From: a virus
Taxonomy: Duplodnaviria; Heunggongvirae; Uroviricota; Caudoviricetes
Direction: 5' to 3' (one strand)
Virus record (IMG/VR): IMGVR_UViG_3300045988_157791
DNA: 64,000 nucleotides
Every line of letters begins with the position of its first letter. The first letter of the stretch is position 1. Under the pieces are notes generated by a model. That model saw only the letters and a program-made list of their open reading frames with translations. It was not told where the DNA came from and did no database searches. A program made the position numbers and the translations under genes. Shown here piece by piece: positions 5,342 through 63,947 of the stretch.

Positions 5342-6598
5342 CTATCGAGAACCACCAAGAATAACACGGTTTTTGACTGGATACCTACGATGTACTGGAT
5401 AGCCCAATGCGTCTGCACTATGCTCAATGCCACCTGTCTTATCCATATCTCGTGTTCCAGGCTTGTAGATGACTTTTTCCAGTGAATCAATCAAATGCTT
5501 GCACTTCGGATCGATATACAGCCGGATATCTCCAGATGCGGACATCAGCATTCGGTTAACAGCATTAACACGATCCGCAATTGGCGGGTGCTTTTTCGAA
5601 TAATCGACACGTAAGAATCCCTTCTCTTTGAATATGTCTACGTCAGACTCCCCACGAGCATGTTGGCGATAAGCACCTGCCGGATCTGGAAATACCGTTA
5701 CCTGTGATTTCCAGCGCCAGAAGCGTCTCTCAAGCTCATCACAAACTTCTGCCGTGTTAGAGGAAAAGAGCACCAATTCATCAATTGCCCATAGCTCACC
5801 ATTTGGCTGAGGTTGCAAAATTACTGAAGACATCGGGTCAATGTTGAAGTCCTGCCCTACCCATATAGGCAACCGAGGGTTGAACTGAAGCGGTTTTACA
5901 TGCACGTTACGATCGAACGGGTAGTAAACGCGCCCGGACATGTTCTCAAAGCTGGCCAGGTACTCCTGAGCGAACGATTTGGGGTCCATATCGTTCTTAG
6001 CAGCTTCAATTTCCGCCGTAGGTACAAACGGAGAATCGGCAGTTACAAACTGCCAGCTCTTCCACTGTCCCTTTCTTTGCAGCTCTACGTTCTGGCCTAT
6101 AGTCCACAGTTTGTGAAATTCCGAGAAGCCTTTTGGCGTACCAATGATCAGTGCACCGCCGCGTGTCGATGAAAGAGTAGGTCGTAACACCTTGTACCAG
6201 GTGTCAGCCTTCATATCCTGAAATTCATCAAGCACTACAAAATGCAACGCTACGCCGCGCAGAGTGTCAGGCTTATCAGCACCTTTGAGGGCGATCTCCG
6301 AACCGTTCTTCAACACGATTGTCATCGTGGTGTCGTTCTTTTTCCTAACCCACTTACGAGGCAGAACTTCCTGTAGATCGTCCCACAAAATCTGGCGAGC
6401 CATCTGGTAAGTAGGAGCGACATACCAGACCCTTTGCTTTTTTTCCTTTGCCGCCGCACGAATAATAGTGGAGATCGACAACCGGGATTTTCCCCAGCGT
6501 CGACCAGCACAAACAACTTTAAATCGATGCGGAGACTGGAAGACTTTCATCTGTCCAGAATGCAGTTGCACAAGACTGAGCGAGGACGGGATTGCCAT
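5342..6598 (-). CDS. terminase large subunit
   Basis: Walker A-like VVCAGRRWGKSRLS near N-terminus, followed by nuclease-like C-terminal half; stop/start coupled with small subunit. Confidence 0.7.
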   Translation of the reverse strand: MAIPSSLSLVQLHSGQMKVFQSPHRFKVVCAGRRWGKSRLSISTIIRAAAKEKKQRVWYVAPTYQMARQILWDDLQEVLPRKWVRKKNDTTMTIVLKNGSEIALKGADKPDTLRGVALHFVVLDEFQDMKADTWYKVLRPTLSSTRGGALIIGTPKGFSEFHKLWTIGQNVELQRKGQWKSWQFVTADSPFVPTAEIEAAKNDMDPKSFAQEYLASFENMSGRVYYPFDRNVHVKPLQFNPRLPIWVGQDFNIDPMSSVILQPQPNGELWAIDELVLFSSNTAEVCDELERRFWRWKSQVTVFPDPAGAYRQHARGESDVDIFKEKGFLRVDYSKKHPPIADRVNAVNRMLMSASGDIRLYIDPKCKHLIDSLEKVIYKPGTRDMDKTGGIEHSADALGYPVHRRYPVKNRVILGGSR

Positions 6599-7230
6599 TA
6601 TTCGTCCTCCCCTTCACTTCCAACATCTGTCGCATCAAATTCGCTTAGAGCTTCTTCTTCCAACGTCTCAAGCAATTCGTCATCGATGATTTCAGGCTCG
6701 TCGTCTTCCTGACGTAATTTCGCCACCTGGGAAGGCGTAAGCTCACCAAATACCAGGTTCGGAATTTCTTCCTCGTCATTTTCCGCATGATCCATGCCCA
6801 ATGCTTTGGACGAAACTTCAAAGCATTTTGCAAGGGTATTACTGGCTCTCTGTAAGCTCTTGAGAGAATCCTCAATCGCCCCTAAAGGCTTACCCTCACG
6901 TTTGGCCGTAGTGACTTCGACCATCACCATCTGCCCCAACGCATACGCCCAGCCGTCATAACGTGTACGACGTTCTTCTATCTTTTCCGCACGGGCTTTA
7001 GCGCGAAGCTCTGCGTCAGATTTAAGAGACTCACGAACCATCTTCCCAACAGAGTCCGCGCCTTTCTCTAATCCTCGCTTTTTGAAATGTCTGGAGAGTG
7101 TTTCACGACGAATGCCGTACTCTTCCTCCAGCTTTGAGAGTGTATATTCGCCTGACGTCCATTTGGCTTCAGCTTCGGCCCACTCCGCTGGTGTCAGGCG
7201 AGTTTTTACCTCGTCTTTTTCGACCGTCAT
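6598..7230 (-). CDS. putative terminase small subunit
   Basis: 210 aa, N-terminal HTH-like segment, acidic C-terminus, directly upstream of and overlapping large terminase. Confidence 0.45.
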   Translation of the reverse strand: MTVEKDEVKTRLTPAEWAEAEAKWTSGEYTLSKLEEEYGIRRETLSRHFKKRGLEKGADSVGKMVRESLKSDAELRAKARAEKIEERRTRYDGWAYALGQMVMVEVTTAKREGKPLGAIEDSLKSLQRASNTLAKCFEVSSKALGMDHAENDEEEIPNLVFGELTPSQVAKLRQEDDEPEIIDDELLETLEEEALSEFDATDVGSEGEDE

Positions 7231-14442: not shown

Positions 14443-14964
14443 ATGGTTAAAGACATCACCTACGGCATACCGGCTGAAGTCTGGCCGCGAGACTACGAAC
14501 ATGCTGAAAACATACTTATGTTCTGGCGGAAGAACAACATTCCTGTAAGAGTCACGCTTGAAGACGGTCAGGTGTTTTGCATGTACGTTCAGGGGACAAT
14601 GCCTTCCCGCAATAAGCTAGATTTATGCCCGCTTCCATATGATAAAGAAAATCGTATAAGACTCCCACTTGAGCGCATTAGCACAATTGAATCAGGTGTA
14701 ATCGATGGCATTGCTCGCGAGTTCAAAGGTAGGCTAACAATACATCCAGACTATGTTGACAATCAGCCATCACGCCGTGACTTTTTTGCGATATGTCGCA
14801 AGGCTTATCAAAACGACCAATCTATAAGGGTCTACATGGCAGACGGTCGTGAAATAGAAGGGGTGTCAAGAGGCGTTGATGCTTGTCAGGTCACTCTTAA
14901 GTTAGAAGACGGCAGAAAAATACTTGTTTTCTTCGATTGGGTTGAACGAATCCTTCCATTTTAA
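14443..14964 (+). CDS. hypothetical protein with internal duplicated small beta-rich motif
   Basis: 173 aa; IPVRVTLEDGQVF and VTLKLEDGRKILVF repeated segments (Rof/Sm-like pattern, weak); TATAAT at ~14409 upstream. Confidence 0.4.
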   Translation: MVKDITYGIPAEVWPRDYEHAENILMFWRKNNIPVRVTLEDGQVFCMYVQGTMPSRNKLDLCPLPYDKENRIRLPLERISTIESGVIDGIAREFKGRLTIHPDYVDNQPSRRDFFAICRKAYQNDQSIRVYMADGREIEGVSRGVDACQVTLKLEDGRKILVFFDWVERILPF

Positions 14965-16264: not shown

Positions 16265-16683
16265 ATTGTCTTTGACTCACTCCAACAACATAAAAATAAG
16301 CGCCAAAATAACGCCATAAACGCGCTTTTATATCCTTGCCAGTACATACCCATTACTTAACACATTAACGCGCTTAAAATGCGTTATATTGCGCTATAAC
16401 GTATGGCTAATCATTGGCTTTTAGTCTTGCTATGTGATCCGCGTTTATTTGTCGGCGCGGATCGGCATTTTGTGTTGTTTTGTATCCGCTCGCATATGAT
16501 TGCCACGTTGGGCAACGTGTACGCGCTTACAGTGATTTACCCACGGATTCACATAATCACATAGCGAAAGCTATCTGGATGGCCCAGGGGCTGAAACCCC
16601 CACCAGCGATACCCCAGCGCCGCTACGCAATTTCTGGCGCGATTCCGGGTTTCTCCCGCTCAGTTTTCTACATAAAGGCGAAT

Positions 16684-16805
16684 GCAGCCGTTTCCCGAAA
16701 AAATCCTGGCCGTTTCCCGTCGGCTCATGAATGCGTTCCTCGCCGTTTCTGAAAATTTCCCTGCGGCAGCTGGTGGCTATAGAGAAAGGGCCGTTTCTGG
16801 CCCTC
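16684..16805. repeat. direct-repeat array A of (G)CCGTTTC(C/T) motifs
   Basis: Four copies: CAGCCGTTTCCCGAAA, GGCCGTTTCCCGTCGG, CGCCGTTTCTGAAAA, GGGCCGTTTCTGG within ~120 bp of non-coding DNA. Confidence 0.5.
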
Positions 16806-16812
16806 TTCTCAG

Positions 16813-17295
16813 TTACACGCCATCAAGGATGTGGATGCGGTTGCTTGCGTATACATTCAGCATAAAGTTAGCGCAAAACAGTTTCCATGTGTCAACGCCA
16901 GCGGTATACGTAATGTTTTTGCATTTAATTGCATTGTTGGCGATCCGCATCCCCTGCGATACTGCTTCATCGTCGGAAAATTTGAACGACGATTGAGTTT
17001 TAATCCAGACAGAAATCTGCGTAGCGAACTCAATCAGCTTGGACTGGCAGAATCGCCCGGAGCGCACCGGAAAGACGAACGTTCCGAATCCAGAATTTAC
17101 CACATATGCTTTCTCAAATACCCGCGAGTAACGACGATTGCCAATGATGTTGCGTACAATAATGCATTTTTCTTGTTCTGACAGTTCTACCGTCTCATTG
17201 TGACGCCAGGCACCAAGTACTCGTTTTTCAATGTCAGAGAACGTTACAGCGATATTGCCATGTGCGGGTGCGTTTACAGTAGCGATAAAATTCAT
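16813..17295 (-). CDS. hypothetical protein
   Basis: 160 aa; preceded by conserved promoter/5'UTR block (GATAAT ... GAAAACAATTTGTT ... AAGGAA). Confidence 0.4.
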   Translation of the reverse strand: MNFIATVNAPAHGNIAVTFSDIEKRVLGAWRHNETVELSEQEKCIIVRNIIGNRRYSRVFEKAYVVNSGFGTFVFPVRSGRFCQSKLIEFATQISVWIKTQSSFKFSDDEAVSQGMRIANNAIKCKNITYTAGVDTWKLFCANFMLNVYASNRIHILDGV

Positions 17296-17499
17296 GATTA
17301 ATTCCTTATCGTAAATAACAAATTGTTTTCTTGTTGGCGTTAATTATCGTTGTACGAATAAGGCGTCAAAGTGGAAAGTTGCGGTAGCCGGACGGGAACA
17401 GGTGGGTTTGTCGGTTGCCTGGAGGTAAGAGGTTGGTGTTTTTAGCCTGAGGGAAACAGGATGGTCATTTAAGGCCACCAGCATTGGTGGCCTTAGTCT

Positions 17500-19595: not shown

Positions 19596-19925
19596 TTACT
19601 CGAATACTTCAAGAAACTCCTGAACGTCCCAATGCTGGACGAGGTGAAGATAGACCTTAGAAATCACGTCATTTTCGCTATCGCATGTGAAGTAGTACTT
19701 CTGGCTGCGGTTGTATGTGTCCACACAAAATTCGCTCATATCCATAAAGTCAGCATCTTCACCCATGTCGCAAATCATCAAAGCAGGTGCGTCATCACGA
19801 GTCATCAGCTCAAGCACCCACCGCGAATTGATCAGAGTGGAAGACCAACCTTCTAACTCATAAAACTGATCAAACTCTTTTTGAGTTAATTTCTTGATTT
19901 GGTTGATGTCGATATTTGCAAACAT
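19596..19925 (-). CDS. hypothetical acidic protein
   Basis: ORF track 19596..19946; ATG 19925; downstream hairpin terminator at ~19568-19590. Confidence 0.4.
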   Translation of the reverse strand: MFANIDINQIKKLTQKEFDQFYELEGWSSTLINSRWVLELMTRDDAPALMICDMGEDADFMDMSEFCVDTYNRSQKYYFTCDSENDVISKVYLHLVQHWDVQEFLEVFE

Positions 19926-20287
19926 AAAGCAACCCTTAAACAACATGTTTTCTTATTGGTGTTATTATCGCAATAACGCATAGGCGAAAAAGGATTTTAT
20001 TCCGGTGAATGTGGTTTTGGCAGTGAGTTTTCAGGTTCAGTACCGAGTACACTTTTTACATTATTCTGATTTAGTAGCCGAAGGTGGCTGGTGGGCAGAA
20101 TAATCATCTCCCCGAAAACCTACTGAAATCGATTGTGACCCGTTGGCTGTCTGGCACAATTACGCTGTAGCTGGGCATTCAGAGGGAATCCAGCGGTAAG
20201 TAAGTTCGCCTGCACGTGAGCGCCTCTCTTCTTCCCGCACATTACAGGTGGGTAGCCGCAACTCTCCCTCTCGCTATACCGGTACGC

Positions 20288-20425
20288 CGCCGTTCCTGAA
20301 CCGGCATCGAGCCTTTTCCCGAAATCCACACAGGCAACTCGACCGTTTCCCTGAAAACCTCCAGCCGTTCCCCGAAGGCAACCCAGCCGTTTCTGTAGCG
20401 GGATGCAGCCTTTTCCCTGTATGGA
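20288..20425. repeat. direct-repeat array B of (A)GCCGTTTCC motifs
   Basis: Six copies at ~22-30 bp spacing: CGCCGTTCCTGAA, AGCCTTTTCCCGAAA, GACCGTTTCCCTGAAAA, CAGCCGTTCCCCGAAGG, CAGCCGTTTCTGTAGCG, CAGCCTTTTCCCTGTATGG. Confidence 0.5.
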
Positions 20426-20579
20426 CCGAAGGCTGACCGTAGGGGTGTTACGGGGGATAAAATCAGGAGTTGAATAAATACGAAAAAGGAGGCGACACCC
20501 CTCCTTCCCTCCCAACTTATACATACCTGTCTTGTTCGCTATACATGTTGTGTTTTCTTCGTGTTTTATCTGTTTCAAC

Positions 20580-21400
20580 CTCTCTATAGGCGTTAATGCT
20601 CACTCCTTCCAGAACGTTCTATACGGCGACTATTTCTGTTGGTGAATTGGGTGTGTTGTTTTCCCTGTCGGTGTATGTGGTTTCGTTCGTTTTGCGATGG
20701 TTCTTCTATGGGGTGTTCTCGTCGTTTTGGTGATTGTTCTTCTCCGTGTATGGAGTAATGGCAGGTGGGCGATTCCTTTCGTTATTGTGTTTGAGTTGTT
20801 TGTCTGGAGTGCGTGAAGGGCTTTTGTAGTTATTCGTGTATTGGGTAATGGCGTTTCCCGTGATTGTTATGTTTCGTGTCTTTTGGGATTGAGAGAAACC
20901 TTGCGGTTACAGGCTTCGTTGGGGTTTCAGTGATTCTGATGTTTCTTCGCTGTTTGGGTAATGGCGTGTCGTGGGTATCGCGCGTATGAATGTTTTCGGA
21001 TTGCCTGTGAAAGTTAGGTTGGTTGTCCGGTAGCCTGGGAAGAAGAGGTGGGTCTTTTCGGTAGCCTGCCATAAAGAGGTTGGTTGTTTTTGGTAATGGC
21101 ATATGTGTTATTTAGTTGTTTTGTTATACCTGAAAATAAGTTGTTTATATGGTTATGTAACGCAACGGGAGCGATTTTGAGCGTGTGTTTTTGTTGGTAG
21201 TGTGTTGGGTCGTCTGTGGTGAAAATTGGACGCTGTGGCGCTGTCTGCTGCGTAGAGTTACGGGTATAAGAAGTGATGTGTGAAAACGTCAATTTTTTAG
21301 ACCAAATCGGGTGAAAGCGTTGACGTTTCGTTGATCTGTTATTTAGTTGTTTTCTTATTTGTATAAACAACCATAACCTATTGATATTTAATGATGTGAT
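20580..21400. repeat. GT-skewed non-coding tract with degenerate ~100 bp tandem units
   Basis: Plus strand almost devoid of C-runs; recurring ...GTGTATTGGGTAATGGCG... at ~20751, 20841, 20953, 21090; GTTATTTAGTTGTTTT repeated at 21108 and 21337. Confidence 0.5.
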
Positions 21401-21489
21401 TGCTGGTATGGGAGGGGAGTAGTGGCGATCAACGGATTCTTATAGAAAAGAATCAAATTGTGACCGCCATTATCAATGAGTTGCAACCG

Positions 21490-22059
21490 TTAGTTGTTCA
21501 GATAAACATTTGGAACACGGACGTAGAAGTTCCTGTCGCCGGTAAGTTCCAGAGTAATGTTAATGTCATTACCATTGTCTAGTGTAGCCGTTGCTCTATA
21601 GAACTTATCCGTCACCTTGTCCTCTATTGTCACCTTCATACATTTTGGTGCAGTCGAACCGTTATTCTCTTTCAGAATAGTTGTCACGAGAGGGCAGGCT
21701 GCTTCTTCAAGAGCAACCTCGTCCTTGTGTGGGATGCCGATGAAGATAACCCAAGCCAGCGACGCAACGATTATGATAAATGGCACTCTGCTGCCTTTTG
21801 TAATAGTCGCGCGCTTCCAGAGATAGACAGGCAGGAGGAATACCCCCCATAGAATTGAAGGTGGTTCACAGCCAGACTCCGATAGAGCCATTCTGTCAGC
21901 TACTAACAAACCGATGGTAGTTACACCCCCAATTATAATAGCGTAATTGGTATACTCTTCCGGCGATACTCCAAAGAAGAAAGGCATGAACGCTAGAATC
22001 CACGCATAAATGTTATTCAGAGGTTTTGTTTGTTGGTTCTGGGTTTCCATCACATCCAT
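21490..22059 (-). CDS. putative membrane protein
   Basis: 189 aa with several hydrophobic helices in N-terminal half (AWILAFMPFFFGV, IIIGGVTTIGLLV, ILWGVFLLPVYLW, FIIIVASLAWVIFIG). Confidence 0.45.
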   Translation of the reverse strand: MDVMETQNQQTKPLNNIYAWILAFMPFFFGVSPEEYTNYAIIIGGVTTIGLLVADRMALSESGCEPPSILWGVFLLPVYLWKRATITKGSRVPFIIIVASLAWVIFIGIPHKDEVALEEAACPLVTTILKENNGSTAPKCMKVTIEDKVTDKFYRATATLDNGNDINITLELTGDRNFYVRVPNVYLNN

Positions 22060-25085: not shown

Positions 25086-26186
25086 ATGAGCGAGTCCAAA
25101 TCGCCGGATGCCCTGAGAGCAATGGTAGCCGGTACGCTGGCTAATTTTCAGCACCCAACCCTGAAACACAACCTGACTACGCTTAAAGCGTTACACCATG
25201 TTGCGTTGATGGATGACACACTGCATGTCGAACTAATCATGCCTTTCGTGTGGAATAAGCCTTTTGAAGACCTGAAAGAGCAATGTAGTGGTGATCTGCT
25301 CCGTATCACTGGCGCAAAGGCTATTGACTGGAAGCTGTCGTACAACATTGCCACGCTTAAGCGCGTCAAAAACCAACCAGGCATTAATGGCGTTAAGAAC
25401 ATTATCGCCGTCAGCTCAGGCAAGGGCGGCGTAGGTAAATCCTCCACGGCGGTAAATCTGGCACTGGCGTTGGCTGCTGAAGGTGCGAAAGTTGGTATTT
25501 TGGATGCCGATATCTATGGTCCATCAATTCCAACCATGCTGGGCGCGGAAAACCAACGTCCAACCTCACCGGACGGTACTCACATGGCACCTATCATGTC
25601 TCATGGCCTGGCAACCAACTCTATTGGTTATCTGGTCACCGACGACAATGCAATGGTGTGGCGTGGACCGATGGCCAGCAAGGCGCTGATGCAGATGTTG
25701 CAGGAAACTCTATGGCCTGATCTGGACTATCTCGTTCTCGATATGCCGCCGGGCACTGGTGATATTCAGTTGACGCTGGCGCAGAACATTCCTGTAACTG
25801 GTGCGGTTGTGGTAACTACGCCGCAAGACATCGCGCTGATCGATGCGAAGAAAGGCATTGTGATGTTCGAAAAAGTCGAAGTGCCGGTACTGGGTATCGT
25901 CGAAAACATGAGTGTGCATATTTGCAGTAACTGCGGTCATCACGAGCCAATTTTTGGCACCGGTGGCGCACAGAAACTGGCCGAGAAATACAACACGCAG
26001 TTGTTAGGCCAAATGCCACTTCATATCTCTCTTCGTGAAGATCTGGATAACGGAACACCAACCGTTATTAGTCGTCCAGATAGCGAATTTACGGCTATTT
26101 ATCGTGACCTCGCAGATCGCGTTGCTGCCCAAATGTATTGGCAAGGTGAAGTAATACCTGGCGAAATCGCATTCCGCGCAGTGTGA
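25086..26186 (+). CDS. apbC: Mrp/ApbC Fe-S cluster carrier ATPase
   Basis: P-loop SGKGGVGKS, CxxC (CSNCGH); divergent from metG as in the enterobacterial chromosome. Confidence 0.9.
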   Translation: MSESKSPDALRAMVAGTLANFQHPTLKHNLTTLKALHHVALMDDTLHVELIMPFVWNKPFEDLKEQCSGDLLRITGAKAIDWKLSYNIATLKRVKNQPGINGVKNIIAVSSGKGGVGKSSTAVNLALALAAEGAKVGILDADIYGPSIPTMLGAENQRPTSPDGTHMAPIMSHGLATNSIGYLVTDDNAMVWRGPMASKALMQMLQETLWPDLDYLVLDMPPGTGDIQLTLAQNIPVTGAVVVTTPQDIALIDAKKGIVMFEKVEVPVLGIVENMSVHICSNCGHHEPIFGTGGAQKLAEKYNTQLLGQMPLHISLREDLDNGTPTVISRPDSEFTAIYRDLADRVAAQMYWQGEVIPGEIAFRAV

Positions 26187-26223: not shown

Positions 26224-26613
26224 CTACATCACGGGACAATCATCAAACTCGCCACTTCTTGCGTCGTTGATAATGTGAGTGATCACACCAAACACGGCAT
26301 TGCTGCCCGTGCATCCATCGTCATCCTTTGGCAATGCTTCCTTCTTACCGGTTCTTAAATCCTCCAGATGCTGACGTGGGTACTTCCGGTATCTTTTTAC
26401 GCGATATTCCCCATCCAGAGCGCATACAAGCAGAGAACCATCAACTGGGGTAAGTGAGGAATCAACCACCAGCAATGCACCCTGTAATATTCCCTCACGA
26501 TGATGACTATCAGCTGCCCGCATGAAGTAGGTCGCTGAAGGATGTCTGATTAGTTGCTGATCAAGAGAAATACGGCTCTCTGCATAATCCGCCGCAGGAG
26601 AAGGGAAGCCCAT
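26224..26613 (-). CDS. UmuD'-like protein (natively lacks the UmuD N-terminal arm; HumD-type)
   Basis: Starts M-GFPSPAADY, i.e. at the position of the UmuD Cys24-Gly25 cleavage site; in-frame TAA 9 nt upstream prevents extension; S24 peptidase-fold C-terminal domain. Confidence 0.6.
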   Translation of the reverse strand: MGFPSPAADYAESRISLDQQLIRHPSATYFMRAADSHHREGILQGALLVVDSSLTPVDGSLLVCALDGEYRVKRYRKYPRQHLEDLRTGKKEALPKDDDGCTGSNAVFGVITHIINDARSGEFDDCPVM

Positions 26614-53160: not shown

Positions 53161-53810
53161 TTATCCACTGGATAGATCCAAATAAGAGATCCCAAGTAAG
53201 ATCAAATAGAAGATCCAAAGAGATCCCCGATCGCCTCTAGCCGTTGCGGTTACTGGTCTGAAAGGGTGTTGCCATCCACTATGGAGAGCAAAGAAACCTC
53301 TGTAGAGAGCTGAATAACCGCTATGAAGAGTAAAACAACCACTCTGGAGAGCTGTATATATCCACTGTAGAGAGTAGAGCACATTGTCTTTTATGGATAA
53401 CTTAATGACTTAATTCTTCATTAACATACTGATATACATAGATATATTTTAAACTCTACTCTTAGTCATGATTCTTATGTCCTTAAATATCCACAGAAGA
53501 GTAGAGTTACCTGTTCTTGAAATCCTCTGATTTTTATCCACAGGCCCGATCCAGTAATTCAGATCACAAAGAGAACCAAAGAGACCCATAAAGACCCAAT
53601 AAGATCCCCGCCCACCTCAAACCGTTGTGCCATCTGCCTTCAGACATGATCGATATCCACTATAGAGAGCGAATAATCCACTATAGGGAGCAAAGCAACC
53701 ACTATAGAGAGGAGAAAAACCACTATAGACGGTAGGATAACCGCTGTGATGAGTGCTACTATCCACTGTAATCAGCAAAGGCCACCAAAGCCGTCGAATA
53801 ACAAGAGACA
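53161..53810 (+). promoter_or_regulatory. plasmid-type replication origin: two GATC clusters, DnaA-box-like sites, two sets of 21-bp-phased iterons
   Basis: Six GATC in 53176-53232 and more at 53548-53651; TTATCCACA at 53534; iterons (A/T)NCCACT(A/G)T(A/G)GAGAG at 53275,53296,53317,53338,53360 and 53655,53676,53698,53719,53740,53761. Confidence 0.7.
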
Positions 53811-53816
53811 TTTGGA

Positions 53817-54872
53817 ATGAGCGAAAACGGCAATAAAAACATAGCGATCGTTGAAGCATTTTCAGAAACAGATAAAAAGACAGGCGAAGTTGTTACGTTG
53901 GTTCCTAACACTAATAACACTGTTCAGCCTGTTGCTTTGATGCGTCTGGGCCTCTTCGTTCCGACGCTGAAATCGACATCCAGAGGAAGAAAGGGGCAAA
54001 TGGTCTCTATGGATGCCTCTGCTGAACTCAAACAGCTGTCTCTGGCAAAAGCCGAAGGGTACGAAGACATAAGGATCTCTGGCCTTCGGCTTGATATGGA
54101 TAACGACTTTAAAACGTGGGTGGGAATAATCCACGCGTTTGCCAAACACAAGGTCGTTGGCGATACTGTCACGTTGCCGTTCGTTGAGTTTGTAAGGCTG
54201 TGTGGCATTCCGACCGCCAGGTCATCAGCGAAGTTACGCAAACGCCTGGACAGTTCGCTAAGCCGTATTGCCACAAATACCATCTCGTTCCGTAGCAAAG
54301 GCTCTGATGAGTTTTACGTAACGCATCTTGTGCAAACGGCAAAATATAGTGTCAAGCACGATACGGTCGAACTGAAAGCAGATCCCAAGATTTTCGAACT
54401 CTACCAGTTCGACAAAAAGGTTCTTCTGCAACTCCGGGCTATAAACGAACTCTCAAGAAAAGAATCCGCTCAGGCGCTTTATACTTTTATTGAAAGTTTG
54501 CCGCCTGATCCGGCACCAATATCACTAGCCCGTTTACGCGCCAGACTTAATCTGACAAGTCGCACTATTACTCAGAATGCGACGGTAAGAAAGGCTATGG
54601 AACAGCTGCGAGAGATAGGATATCTCGATTACACGGAAGTTAAGCGCGGAAACTCGGTCTACTTCGTCATCCACTATAGGCGGCCAAAGTTACGCCAGGC
54701 ACAAATATCAACAAAAATCGATAATGATGAGACGGAATATAGCCTCCCAGATGAGAATCAAGATGACATTATCGACGTTGTGCCTGACGAAAAAGAAGGC
54801 AAAATGGTCATGTTGAGTAAAGAAGAACTGGCGCTTCTCGAAGAGTTGCGCAAGGCAAAGACTCGCAAATAG
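53817..54872 (+). CDS. repA: iteron-binding replication initiator RepA (P1/RepFIB family)
   Basis: [54 protein letters not shown] closely parallel P1-type RepA as recalled; flanked by iterons. Confidence 0.7.
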
Positions 54873-54873
54873 C

Positions 54874-55360
54874 CCAACCACTGTAGTTAGTAGTAAGGCT
54901 CACTATCCACTGTAGTGAGCCTTACTTATATCTGTAATTCGCTATCCACTATAGTGAGTATCGTTATCTGTTGATAACCACTGTAGGCAGTAGAATGCAA
55001 ATACTGAATTAAATGTTAGTGATCACTAACACTGATGAAACAAGGGCTGCGAGGTTAGTGGTCACTGGGTATCTTGGAAAATTTACTGTCTATAGTGGTT
55101 GTTGTCGCCCTCATCTTTGAGCGTATCCACTGTGGCGAGTGGATATCCACTGAAAACAGCAAAGGCTTACTCACCATAGTGGATACCCGCTGGACATCTC
55201 ACTCCAATACTCACCATAGTGGTTGTTTGATGCGAATGAAAGGCTGTCTACTCGCTACAGTGGTTAGCAGATATGTAGGAAGGTTTTGTTACTGACTACA
55301 GTGGATAATGAGCTGGATACGAATGCGGTGAGTAGTCTGCTCACCGCAGTGGTTGGTGCT
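54874..55360. repeat. downstream iteron array (incA-like), both orientations
   Basis: About 12 copies of CCACTGTAG / CCACTATAG or inverse CTATAGTGG / CTACAGTGG. Confidence 0.65.
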
Positions 55361-63127: not shown

Positions 63128-63456
63128 TGATGCCCGCCAATTGGCGGGCATCTGTTCTCTGTAAAGGTGTCTGGCATCGTCTGGTTCGTTAACGTTTACT
63201 AAACCAATGGTGACAAAAATTAGTTATCTTTGAAAAATAAAGGTTGCATGAAAAGAAGGGGTATGCGTTAATAGCATCGTTGGTTTGCAAGACAGACCTT
63301 ATGTAAGCAGTTTTAGTAAAGCAGTCTCAGTTCAGTGTTATCTTCTGATTTCCCTTCTTCGTGAGTCTCCTCCTTAAGTGCCTAAGTAAGTCCCAATCTA
63401 TACAGATCAAATTCTCGCCGCACTATGTGGCTCACAAAATTAAGAAGGTAATATCT

Positions 63457-63672
63457 ATGTCTAATAAAATGACTGGTTTAGTAAAATGGTTTAACTCTGA
63501 TAAAGGCTTTGGCTTTATTTCTCCTGCTGATGGCAGTAAAGATGTTTTTGTACATTTTTCGGCAATTCAGAGTAATAATTTCCGCACTTTGGAAGAAGGC
63601 CAGCAGGTCGAATTCTCTATCGAGAATGGGGCTAAAGGCCCAGCAGCAGCAAATGTCGTTGCTCTAAGCTGA
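63457..63672 (+). CDS. CspA-family cold-shock protein
   Basis: [38 protein letters not shown] (RNP1/RNP2); ORF-track start 63361 rejected in favour of ATG 63457 with AAGAAGG RBS. Confidence 0.85.
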
Positions 63673-63947
63673 TTCAACGCTGATGATCCTCATTTCTACA
63701 ATAACGAAGACGGTGTAAGCCTGAGTGGATAGATTTGCAGGATTGTACAAGTTGAATAAATTAGCATGGTAAGGCCATGCTAATTAAATCGACACAACGG
63801 CCAGTTTATTCCATAAAAGTGAATTGCCCATTGTGGCGAAATGCGGGGTTGCCGCATGAATAGTCAAAGGCAGAAGCTAACTGCCGGCATGGCAAAACAA
63901 AGTGCGTAAGAGGAGTGACTTCCTCAACAAGCGCCATAATTCTTTAT

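Follow-up and report, generated by a model that had tools for sequence, protein, structure and literature searches.

The 64,000-nucleotide (nt) stretch of viral DNA analysed here (IMG/VR record IMGVR_UViG_3300045988_157791, Caudoviricetes; hereafter the window) is, judged by its sequence, an SSU5-like phage-plasmid, belonging to a family of plasmids of about 110 kb found in Escherichia coli, Klebsiella, Salmonella and their relatives. On its minus strand we found a gene-free control region (19947..21489), bounded by an upstream open reading frame (ORF) at 21490..22059 and a downstream one at 19596..19946, the centre of which is a strongly strand-skewed tract. Composition, folding and conservation define this tract (20610..21487, minus strand) as A+C-rich, G-poor and free of structure in the sense direction of the neighbouring genes. 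Comparison of diverged lineages indicates that the element is real, conserved and selected. The role that we consider most likely, and then only tentatively, is one at the level of RNA, in which the tract would serve as a Rho-loading barrier or leader that insulates the downstream iteron-like array and the early genes. An RNA-level role was ranked first because only RNA (or single-stranded DNA) explains why A+C-rich filler is kept on one strand.

Strand skew and lack of structure in the tract

The GT fraction of the plus strand, calculated for segments of 800 nt, peaks at 0.706 at 20626-21425. This is the maximum of the entire window, 7 standard deviations (SD) above the mean of 0.500 ± 0.029, and the next most extreme 800-nt segments reach 0.558 and 0.432. 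An earlier note on this DNA had reported an extreme strand skew at 20580-21400. The skew indeed lies outside the background variation and the place was right, but the extent has to be redrawn, as the tract covers about 20610-21487 inside the larger gene-free region. Across the tract, the GC skew is +0.35 to +0.46 and the AT skew -0.25 to -0.55; C falls to 12% on the plus strand, and U would make up 40% of a plus-strand RNA. With a GC content of 44-46%, the tract is not AT-rich, and two AT-rich patches of about 60 bp are located at 21107-21165 and 21336-21402. Neither purine/pyrimidine asymmetry nor long alternating runs were found in the tract, for which reason explanations by triplex or Z-DNA were rejected.

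An A+C-rich sense strand cannot pair with itself, and the RNA of the tract therefore cannot fold. Over about 21320-20540, minus-strand RNA folded in segments gave only -5 to -16 kcal/mol per 120 nt, compared with a background of -27.9 ± 6.7 kcal/mol per 120 nt across the window, of which the 99th percentile is -12. The plus-strand RNA of the tract, in which G-U pairs are possible, folds at the background level. The lack of structure is thus specific to the strand that is sense for every neighbouring gene. We also searched for zones resembling Rho utilisation (rut) sites, defined by at least 28% C and at most 16% G per 78 nt. Such a zone extends unbroken for 878 nt on the sense strand of the tract, four times the length of the second-longest one on that strand (223 nt). 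Other promoter regions of the element are mildly A+C-rich on the sense strand (0.63-0.67).

Conservation and selection

Conservation was assessed in an alignment of eight lineages that are only 66-73% identical in the region. A gap of about 1.4-1.6 kb is present at the same position in E. coli, SSU5, pHCM2, Enterobacter, Cronobacter and Klebsiella, and also in the most distant relatives found, L049 (marker protein 51% identical) and L051 (Klebsiella oxytoca). At another Klebsiella locus (L050, 56%), the gene-free stretch is narrower and the A+C-rich tract is retained. The GT skew amounts to 0.68-0.74 in all lineages, L049 and L051 included, and the sense strand is composed of 35-39% A, 29-32% C, 13-17% G and 15-18% T. 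Midway along the tract, the lineages of the window and of SSU5 can barely be aligned beyond the short boxes described below, with the composition unchanged.

The direction of the substitutions argues for selection on the composition itself. In the tract, exchanges between A and C account for 29% of the substitutions and exchanges between G and T for 5%, a ratio of about 6:1, whereas the adjacent non-skewed part of the gap shows 13% and 14%, respectively. Composition alone would give a ratio of about 2.3:1. The observed excess implies that substitutions introducing G or T into the sense strand are being purged, and, by this comparison, the skew is under selection.

The view of the earlier note that the tract is non-coding, with only artefactual ORFs, held up in relatives. 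The NCBI Prokaryotic Genome Annotation Pipeline (PGAP) places no annotation in 19947-21489 of close relatives. We found no ORF on either strand that is conserved in the eight diverged lineages, in which position and frame differ, and the alignment contains many frame-breaking insertions and deletions of one or two bases. Small plus-strand ORFs starting from TAATG inside the boxes, inspected by eye, have no conserved frame and no consistent spacing between stop and start codons.

The upstream border of the region is equally distinctive. The immediate upstream gene differs in almost every lineage (L002, L005-L010), encoding hypothetical proteins of 61 to 399 residues, and metG, apbC and restriction-modification (RM) systems are found nearby. 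Homology between lineages begins sharply at a hairpin (21423..21469, minus strand) just past the upstream stop codon. Because the upstream gene varies while homology resumes precisely at the hairpin, the region forms the edge of an accessory-gene insertion zone.

Transcription in the lysogen

The phage-plasmid Cyrano (OV696614) also matches the region, with 97.8% identity over it, and strand-specific RNA sequencing (RNA-seq) data are available for uninduced E. coli LF82 carrying Cyrano (GSE154648, reanalysed in PMC9928086). Values are given for the sense strand as log2(FPKM+5), FPKM being fragments per kilobase per million mapped reads. The upstream gene, CYRAN_102, reaches 5.6-9.2 (FPKM about 45-590; PMC9928086 S1 Table). 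CYRAN_103, an ORF inside the tract on the same strand (window 21014-21370), stays at 2.32 in lysogeny broth (LB), corresponding to an FPKM of 0, and at a maximum of 4.27 elsewhere (FPKM about 14). CYRAN_104, which lies over the iteron-like array, remains at the background level in the lysogen (2.6-4.7; FPKM about 6-17), and the downstream gene CYRAN_105 reaches 5.5-7.8, with 2.3-4.4 in stationary-phase LB.

Since CYRAN_102 is expressed and CYRAN_103 is silent, sense transcription in uninduced cells ends where the tract begins. Across this boundary FPKM falls from about 45-590 to 0-14, a drop for which the hairpin could be responsible. The downstream CYRAN_105 is driven separately from the silent tract. 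A CA-rich non-coding transcript from the minus strand was one of three roles that the earlier note had offered. It is the best fit of the three, considering the structure-free strand, the sense of the flanking genes and a promoter-like element at the head of the tract, but the same strand is silent (FPKM 0-14) in the uninduced lysogen, which means that any transcript must be conditional or unstable.

Sites within the control region

Read in the sense direction, the region opens with the hairpin at its upstream border, whose consensus fold comprises a 9-bp outer and a 6-bp inner stem. The segment containing it folds at -20.9 kcal/mol (z = -3.3). The apical sequence TTTCTATAAG / UUUCUAUAAG is invariant. 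The stems vary between the window and SSU5, and L049 presents the same loop on a wholly unrelated 11-bp stem (GUCAACCUCUC/GAGAGGUUGAU). The hairpin is conserved, but it is followed only by CUUUCCCC where an intrinsic terminator would have its U-run.

A regulatory block of conserved islands lies at 21262..21364 (minus strand). It holds the word ATAAGAAAACAACTAAATAAC (ATAAGAAAACAA...; 21338-21358, minus strand), which is typical of the early promoters of the element, and a predicted promoter-like element directed into the tract (TTGACG-N17-TTATACCC, with TTGACR across lineages; 21262-21292, minus strand). An inverted repeat, GTCAACG / TTGACG (21318-21324 / 21287-21292, minus strand), overlies the -35 of the latter. 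Seven of the eight lineages have the -35/-10-like pair in the same column of the alignment; in L049 and L051 the sequence of the spacer is altered and its length of 17 nt retained. Only one conserved promoter-like site was detected on the plus strand, and it is directed away from the tract. Downstream of the block, the eight-lineage alignment revealed a further conserved island, CGCTCCCGTTGCGTTA (21158-21173, minus strand). One copy of the palindrome AAAACAA-N-TTGTTTT (21133..21147), degenerate in the window and near-perfect in other lineages, precedes a second AAGAAAACAA-like word (21107-21127, minus strand). The word GTTATTTAGTTGTTTT, quoted in the earlier note as recurring, does so twice, at 21107 and 21338.

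The alignment also shows three tandem units of about 31 nt, ACC(A/C)ACCT..N..CAGGCTACC, at 20999..21084 (minus strand), which have diverged to ACACCACTC..CAGGCA in L049 and L051. In addition, a word search gave four boxes of the form YGCCATTACY, all in one orientation, at 21092-21101, 20957-20966, 20844-20853 and 20754-20763 (minus strand). Here the other quoted word was confirmed, as GCCATTAC, to which the GGTAATGGC core is complementary, has four minus-strand copies (20755, 20845, 20958 and 21093); the window as a whole has eight matches against 1.6 expected. The idea that such words belong to degenerate tandem units of about 100 bp had to be abandoned. Tandem Repeats Finder, with a minimum score of 30, detected no array in 20580-21400. 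Moreover, the box spacing is irregular (90, 113 and 135 nt, and 41-232 nt in other lineages), and, outside the shared box, the segments from one box to the next show no more similarity than shuffled sequence in four of six pairs, the other two being marginal.

Lineages carry four to six boxes at variable spacing. In the distant L049 and L051, all box copies shift together to TGCCATCT(C/T)CCA or GCCATC(C/A)CCCAA in place of GCCATTACCC, and the 31-nt units change in concert, too. Such concerted change suggests that boxes and units are recognised by a co-evolving trans-acting factor.

Beyond the boxes follows a GA-rich segment, GTATAAGTTGGGAGGGAAGGAGGGG (20483..20522, minus strand), in which a terminator scan identified an intrinsic-terminator-like hairpin with a U-run (20509->20483) at its end. 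The GA-rich island is conserved, with a length of about 180 nt in L049 and L051, but the hairpin and U-run are good only in the window's lineage and degenerate elsewhere. The iteron-like array that comes next (20289..20419, minus strand) consists of six repeats (C/T)(A/G)GGGAAA(A/C)GGC at a spacing of 21-31 bp (about 22 bp). It adjoins the skewed tract rather than lying within it, is conserved in all lineages including L049 and L051, and is unlike the RepA iterons of the element (ATCCACTATAGAGAG). Last comes the downstream gene's promoter/operator module (GCGATAAT..AAGAAAACATGTTGTTT; 19938..19971, minus strand), a member of a dispersed promoter/operator family.

Several of these motifs recur elsewhere in the window. 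The 31-nt units (ACCxACCT..CAGGCxACCG) are repeated 2.5 times at 17380-17450 (minus strand), directly upstream of the -35 (TTGACG) of the gene at 16813..17295, and are probably a regulator-binding module common to this ordinary promoter and the tract. A second small array of the iteron-like repeat is located 3.6 kb away, at about 16680-16760, and is also present in the most distant lineages; the two arrays flank a cluster of seven small early genes. The palindrome AAAACAA-N-TTGTTTT has 16 copies with up to two mismatches in the window, against 0.85 expected (7270, 7295, 14916, 17315, 17800, 18550, 19453, 19937, 21133, 22746, 22797, 29665, 34206, 34935, 45166 and 56897). Most copies lie 5-25 nt upstream of minus-strand start codons, including those of nrdB and of the gene just upstream of the large terminase gene, and they often follow a GATAAT-type -10 within the word AAGAAAACAA. 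By its placement, the palindrome looks like an operator or a 5' untranslated region (5'UTR) target of a global regulator of the phage-plasmid.

A proposed Rho-loading barrier or leader

Rho loads on RNA that is C-rich, G-poor, unstructured and untranslated. In its sequence, the tract has three features of a rut site: a C-rich and G-poor composition over at least 70-80 nt (here 878 nt), little structure and no translation. We therefore considered how such a substrate could work in the phage-plasmid. RNA polymerase would enter from the accessory genes or start at the tract's own promoter-like element (about 21262-21292). The resulting RNA, naked, C-rich, G-poor and ribosome-free, would be a substrate of Rho, which may terminate the transcript, and the RNA would then be shortened as far as the conserved hairpin. 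During lysogeny, when the element is a plasmid, this very long rut-type barrier or leader, lying where the variable accessory genes border on a conserved block of small early genes, could shield the array and the early genes from read-through out of any gene inserted upstream. The RNA-seq data from the lysogen would fit such a barrier. The four to six lineage-specific boxes, together with the 31-nt units, might be the sites of a trans-acting factor that modulates the barrier in lytic growth.

Among known systems, rut sites and Rho-dependent terminators such as lambda tR1 (rutA-boxB-rutB), together with long Rho-attenuated leaders like the rpoS 5'UTR, are the closest in kind. Like them, the tract is an untranslated, C-rich, G-poor and unstructured stretch following a gene, with a hairpin at its start and a collapse of the transcript downstream of an expressed gene. 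It differs in being about ten times longer and in bearing conserved lineage-specific boxes and repeats, and the part given to Rho here is our inference.

Several observations weigh against a Rho-loading barrier. A rut site needs about 80 nt, and 880 nt with conserved boxes far exceeds what a terminator requires. The drop in expression falls within about 120 nt after the stop codon, for which the hairpin alone could suffice. As the downstream gene is served by a promoter of its own, there is no need to invoke a leader, and the -10 of the promoter-like element (TATACC) is poor. The boxes resemble DNA-binding sites, as do the adjoining 22-bp array and the 31-nt units, which are spaced by three turns of the helix, and the boxes would demand an additional trans-acting factor. 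Our preference is tentative precisely because of the roughly tenfold excess over the length of a rut site, the possible sufficiency of the hairpin and the extra factor that the boxes would need.

The favoured reading thus invokes a known mechanism in an unusual form, and the element itself is undescribed in the literature that we searched. Targeted full-text searches on SSU5-type phage-plasmids and FljA returned no description of the region, and a heteroresistance preprint from 2026 concerns another phage-plasmid family.

A possible induced decoy RNA

The main rival to the barrier is a non-coding decoy RNA of the lytic phase. The promoter at about 21262-21292 would be repressed in the lysogen and fire upon induction, yielding an unstructured, A+C-rich RNA of 650-780 nt; we regard this as possible, though doubtful. 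With the same reserve, its four to six boxes might titrate an RNA-binding protein, in analogy to the titration of CsrA by CsrB, the candidates being an FljA-family Sm/Hfq-like protein encoded by the element and the host's Hfq or Rho. A promoter-like element with preserved spacing and an inverted repeat over its -35 would be in line with such a gene, as would the terminator at 20509-20483 in the window's lineage, but this terminator is not conserved. The silence in uninduced lysogens fits a repressed gene. The variable copy number of the boxes, which change together, is what would be expected for sites read by one co-evolving factor.

The candidate partner deserves attention. The gene at 14443-14964 (plus strand), about 6 kb from the tract, encodes a protein of 173 residues with a full-length match to Pfam PF03614 (FljA, phase-1 flagellin repressor; E = 5e-81). 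Every lineage has this PF03614 (FljA) protein as a core neighbour, and the gene for it was a core gene in all SSU5-like phage-plasmids examined. The AlphaFold model of the protein (predicted local distance difference test, pLDDT, 83; predicted template modelling score, pTM, 0.81) contains two tandem modules of a helix and five strands, which match crystal structures of Hfq with target template modelling (TM) scores of 0.7-0.88 and a root-mean-square deviation (rmsd) of about 1-1.6 Å. The predicted fold suggests that FljA-family regulators may be tandem Sm-like RNA binders, possibly of phage origin. FljA represses the translation of fliC (PMC2652032).

Searches for a specific target of the decoy gave no support. 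The boxes share ACCCAATAC with the E. coli fliC 5'UTR, but in all eight lineages the scores fall within the null distribution from dinucleotide shuffling, which places the similarity within chance. Motifs of the (ARN)>=4 type for the distal face of Hfq are not enriched over composition. An unprotected C-rich RNA would itself be a target of Rho, which also speaks against a decoy. Duplexes with the GU-rich R1 seed of GcvB, whose sequence was verified against 5426 genomes, had a mean energy of -18.2 kcal/mol in the tract and -14.7 ± 4.1 kcal/mol in the window; this difference of less than 1 SD, with no outstanding site, is not exceptional, and a GcvB sponge was rejected. A sponge for Csr/Rsm proteins was discarded on the basis that GGA motifs are few in the A+C-rich tract and unconserved in the window's lineage, as judged by eye and not formally counted. 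Also by eye, the window's own lineage has lost the GGA of the extended box. GGA motifs are present in the G-rich iteron array, which is at background expression in the lysogen. Rfam 15 contains no family matching the tract at the gathering score, and only three chance-level matches (E 2-9) were obtained for 19800-21700. We also considered a type III antitoxin of the ToxI kind, in which repeats of about 34-45 nt are followed by a toxin gene. The tract has three 31-nt units but no ORF after them, and the same units occur upstream of the ordinary promoter at 17380-17450.

Sponge RNAs (CsrB/CsrC, RsmY/Z, CrcZ) resemble the tract in having several short single-stranded motifs in variable copy number, and the core neighbour with the Sm/Hfq-like model would supply a gene for an RNA-binding protein. 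The tract differs from them in its lack of Rfam homology, in a motif that is neither GGA nor the CA-motif, in boxes that are 40-230 nt apart rather than dense, and in its silence in RNA-seq of the uninduced lysogen. As reportedly described by Tree and colleagues in 2014, the prophage anti-sRNA AgvB mimics C/A-rich targets of GcvB. In comparison with AgvB and SroC, the tract would likewise give a phage-borne, C/A-rich RNA with a composition complementary to the GU-rich GcvB seed, but it has no specific GcvB site and is far longer. The immunity leaders of P4 (CI RNA/seqA-seqC) and P1 (c4/ant) are also untranslated leaders of phage-plasmids with short repeats and a role in lysogenic control; the tract is unrelated to them in sequence, and a complementary small RNA was not found.

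In its full form, the decoy would be a long, structure-free, A+C-rich RNA made upon induction that captures the FljA-family repressor or Rho, and so an RNA "antirepressor" of the lysis-lysogeny switch. We consider this unlikely. If it were true, transcription of the decoy would release early mRNAs or cause general antitermination.

A possible DNA-level element and minor alternatives

A role at the level of DNA is likewise improbable, if well worth weighing. The 22-bp array, the 31-bp units and the boxes would carry an assembly that acts as a lytic origin or in copy control, partition or silencing. By analogy with P1 oriL and lambda ori, the skewed tract might then be a spacer without hairpins, promoters and ORFs, or the path of an activating transcription, which we hold equally improbable. 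Six direct repeats of about 22 bp adjoin the tract, a second array is found 3.6 kb off, and both occur in all lineages. The spacing of the 31-bp units places the sites on one face of the helix; inverted repeats, operator-type palindromes and the two AT-rich patches of about 60 bp are further points in favour, as are the replication proteins encoded by the element itself. The lytic origin suggested by the earlier note gains from the adjoining array, but it leaves the skew unexplained, because binding sites do not account for A+C being kept between them on one strand.

The expected companions of an origin are also missing. The gap contains no DnaA box (TTWTNCACA), no initiator gene is adjacent, and the neighbouring proteins are without Rep-like domains. 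The RepA (53817-54872) origin is 33 kb away and has different iterons (ATCCACTATAGAGAG), and the AT-rich patches are separated from the array by 700-900 bp. The cumulative GC skew of the whole plasmid has no turning point at the region; it is monotonic and uninformative since nearly all genes lie on one strand. The only Chi site of the gap is outside the skewed tract, and its only GATC sites are at the upstream edge of the tract. Iteron origins (lambda ori; P4 ori/crr; P1 oriL) resemble the region in having direct repeats spaced by about two turns of the helix, another array some kilobases off and, close by, promoter-like elements under operator control. The region differs from them in having no adjacent initiator gene or DnaA boxes and in the 880 bp of its asymmetric part, with a GC content of 44-46%.

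The remaining readings are minor. The absence of any function, with the tract being the decayed remains of duplicated promoter modules or an accident of composition, seems quite improbable to us. The tract does share the 31-nt units, the AAGAAAACAA words, the palindrome and ACGCCAWY next to a -10 with ordinary promoter regions, and other promoter regions have a mild A+C excess (0.63-0.67). Against this stand the length, position, composition and architecture kept in all lineages, as well as the directional bias of substitutions. Still less probable is an R-loop zone, in which a G-rich plus-strand transcript would hybridise to its C-rich template as in ColE1 RNA II, T4 oriF or immunoglobulin switch regions. 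The GC skew of +0.35 to +0.46 over 800 bp and the RNase HI and 5'-3' exonuclease encoded by the element would suit it, but no plus-strand promoter is conserved at the left edge, the 40% U of the plus-strand RNA would weaken hybrids, and genes and regulatory motifs are all oriented the opposite way. A packaging (pac/cos) site, also raised in the earlier note, is scarcely credible. In its favour there is only the general argument that words repeated in the non-coding DNA of a phage may serve as terminase sites. The terminase genes (5342-7230) lie about 13 kb away and are preceded by a non-coding region of their own, the linear phage records SSU5, Cyrano and PhiR41_1 have the tract in their interior, and the skew and other features of the tract are unlike those of known pac or cos sites.

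The host element and the spread of the region

The region is confined to plasmids in the genomes searched. Among 5426 complete E. coli genomes, 243 carry a match to 20400-21500, with 97-98% identity, on plasmids of about 100-115 kb, and no chromosomal copy was found in this set. Salmonella phage SSU5 matches the same interval with 72% identity. A more sensitive search returned 841 PLSDB plasmids from Klebsiella, Escherichia, Enterobacter, Salmonella, Citrobacter, Cronobacter and others, nearly all of which are non-mobilizable. A scan of viral contigs using the downstream protein as the query detected close relatives only.

The complete relative NZ_AP027904 has the usual SSU5-type layout, with almost all genes on one strand, corresponding to the minus strand of the window; there, repA is 33 kb from the region and the terminase genes are about 13 kb from it. 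The replication proteins encoded by the element include DnaE, a DnaB-like helicase, primase, ligase and RNase HI, and a 5'-3' exonuclease is encoded as well. The plasmid replication region of the window (53270-55350) comprises repA (53817-54872) with more than 15 iterons, ATCCACTATAGAGAG, on both sides at a spacing of 21 bp, inverted downstream, an arrangement that by its organisation is P1/RepFIB-like.

Other genes of the window stood out as well. At 63279-63697 (plus strand), a full-length match to the cspA thermoregulator 5'UTR (Rfam RF01766, 185.7 bits) indicates that the phage-plasmid carries a cold-shock protein gene together with its RNA thermosensor. An S24 (LexA/UmuD-like) peptidase of 129 residues with no evident DNA-binding domain is encoded at 26224-26613 (minus strand), and an Mrp/ApbC-type ATPase at 25086-26186 (plus strand). 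In the lysogen, both rank with the most strongly expressed genes of Cyrano, and the peptidase rises to a log2 value of about 12 in macrophages (PMC9928086 S1 Table).

Parts of the region also occur in a different setting. A fragment of at least about 650 bp is present in the 296-kb Klebsiella pneumoniae plasmid pAZS099-NDM-IMP (L004:4850-5500) and likewise in similar large IncFIB/HI1B plasmids. In these large conjugative resistance plasmids it comprises the hairpin, the regulatory block, the 31-nt units and the first boxes, and it lies beside a DUF262/type I RM cluster. We rejected it as an independent occurrence, given that it is a near-identical fragment of the Klebsiella phage-plasmid version; it is evidently a product of recombination, to go by this identity. 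In some plasmids of E. coli and E. albertii (CP091407.1, NZ_CP099893.1), the region is about 370 bp longer than in the window and aligns as two pieces, which suggests an insertion inside the gap.

Implications

No other conserved non-coding element of the window is as large as this 1.5-kb region, which sits at the junction of variable and conserved gene content. Its defining property, active selection over almost 900 nt for an RNA that is unable to fold, is unusual. SSU5-like phage-plasmids are widespread in clinical and animal Enterobacteriaceae and carry resistance and other accessory genes. If the tract were a decoy RNA, it would represent a new regulatory principle in a phage-plasmid family that is common in clinical Enterobacteriaceae. 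If, as we tentatively favour, it is a Rho-loading barrier, it would show how mobile elements guard their core circuits from read-through of newly acquired genes.

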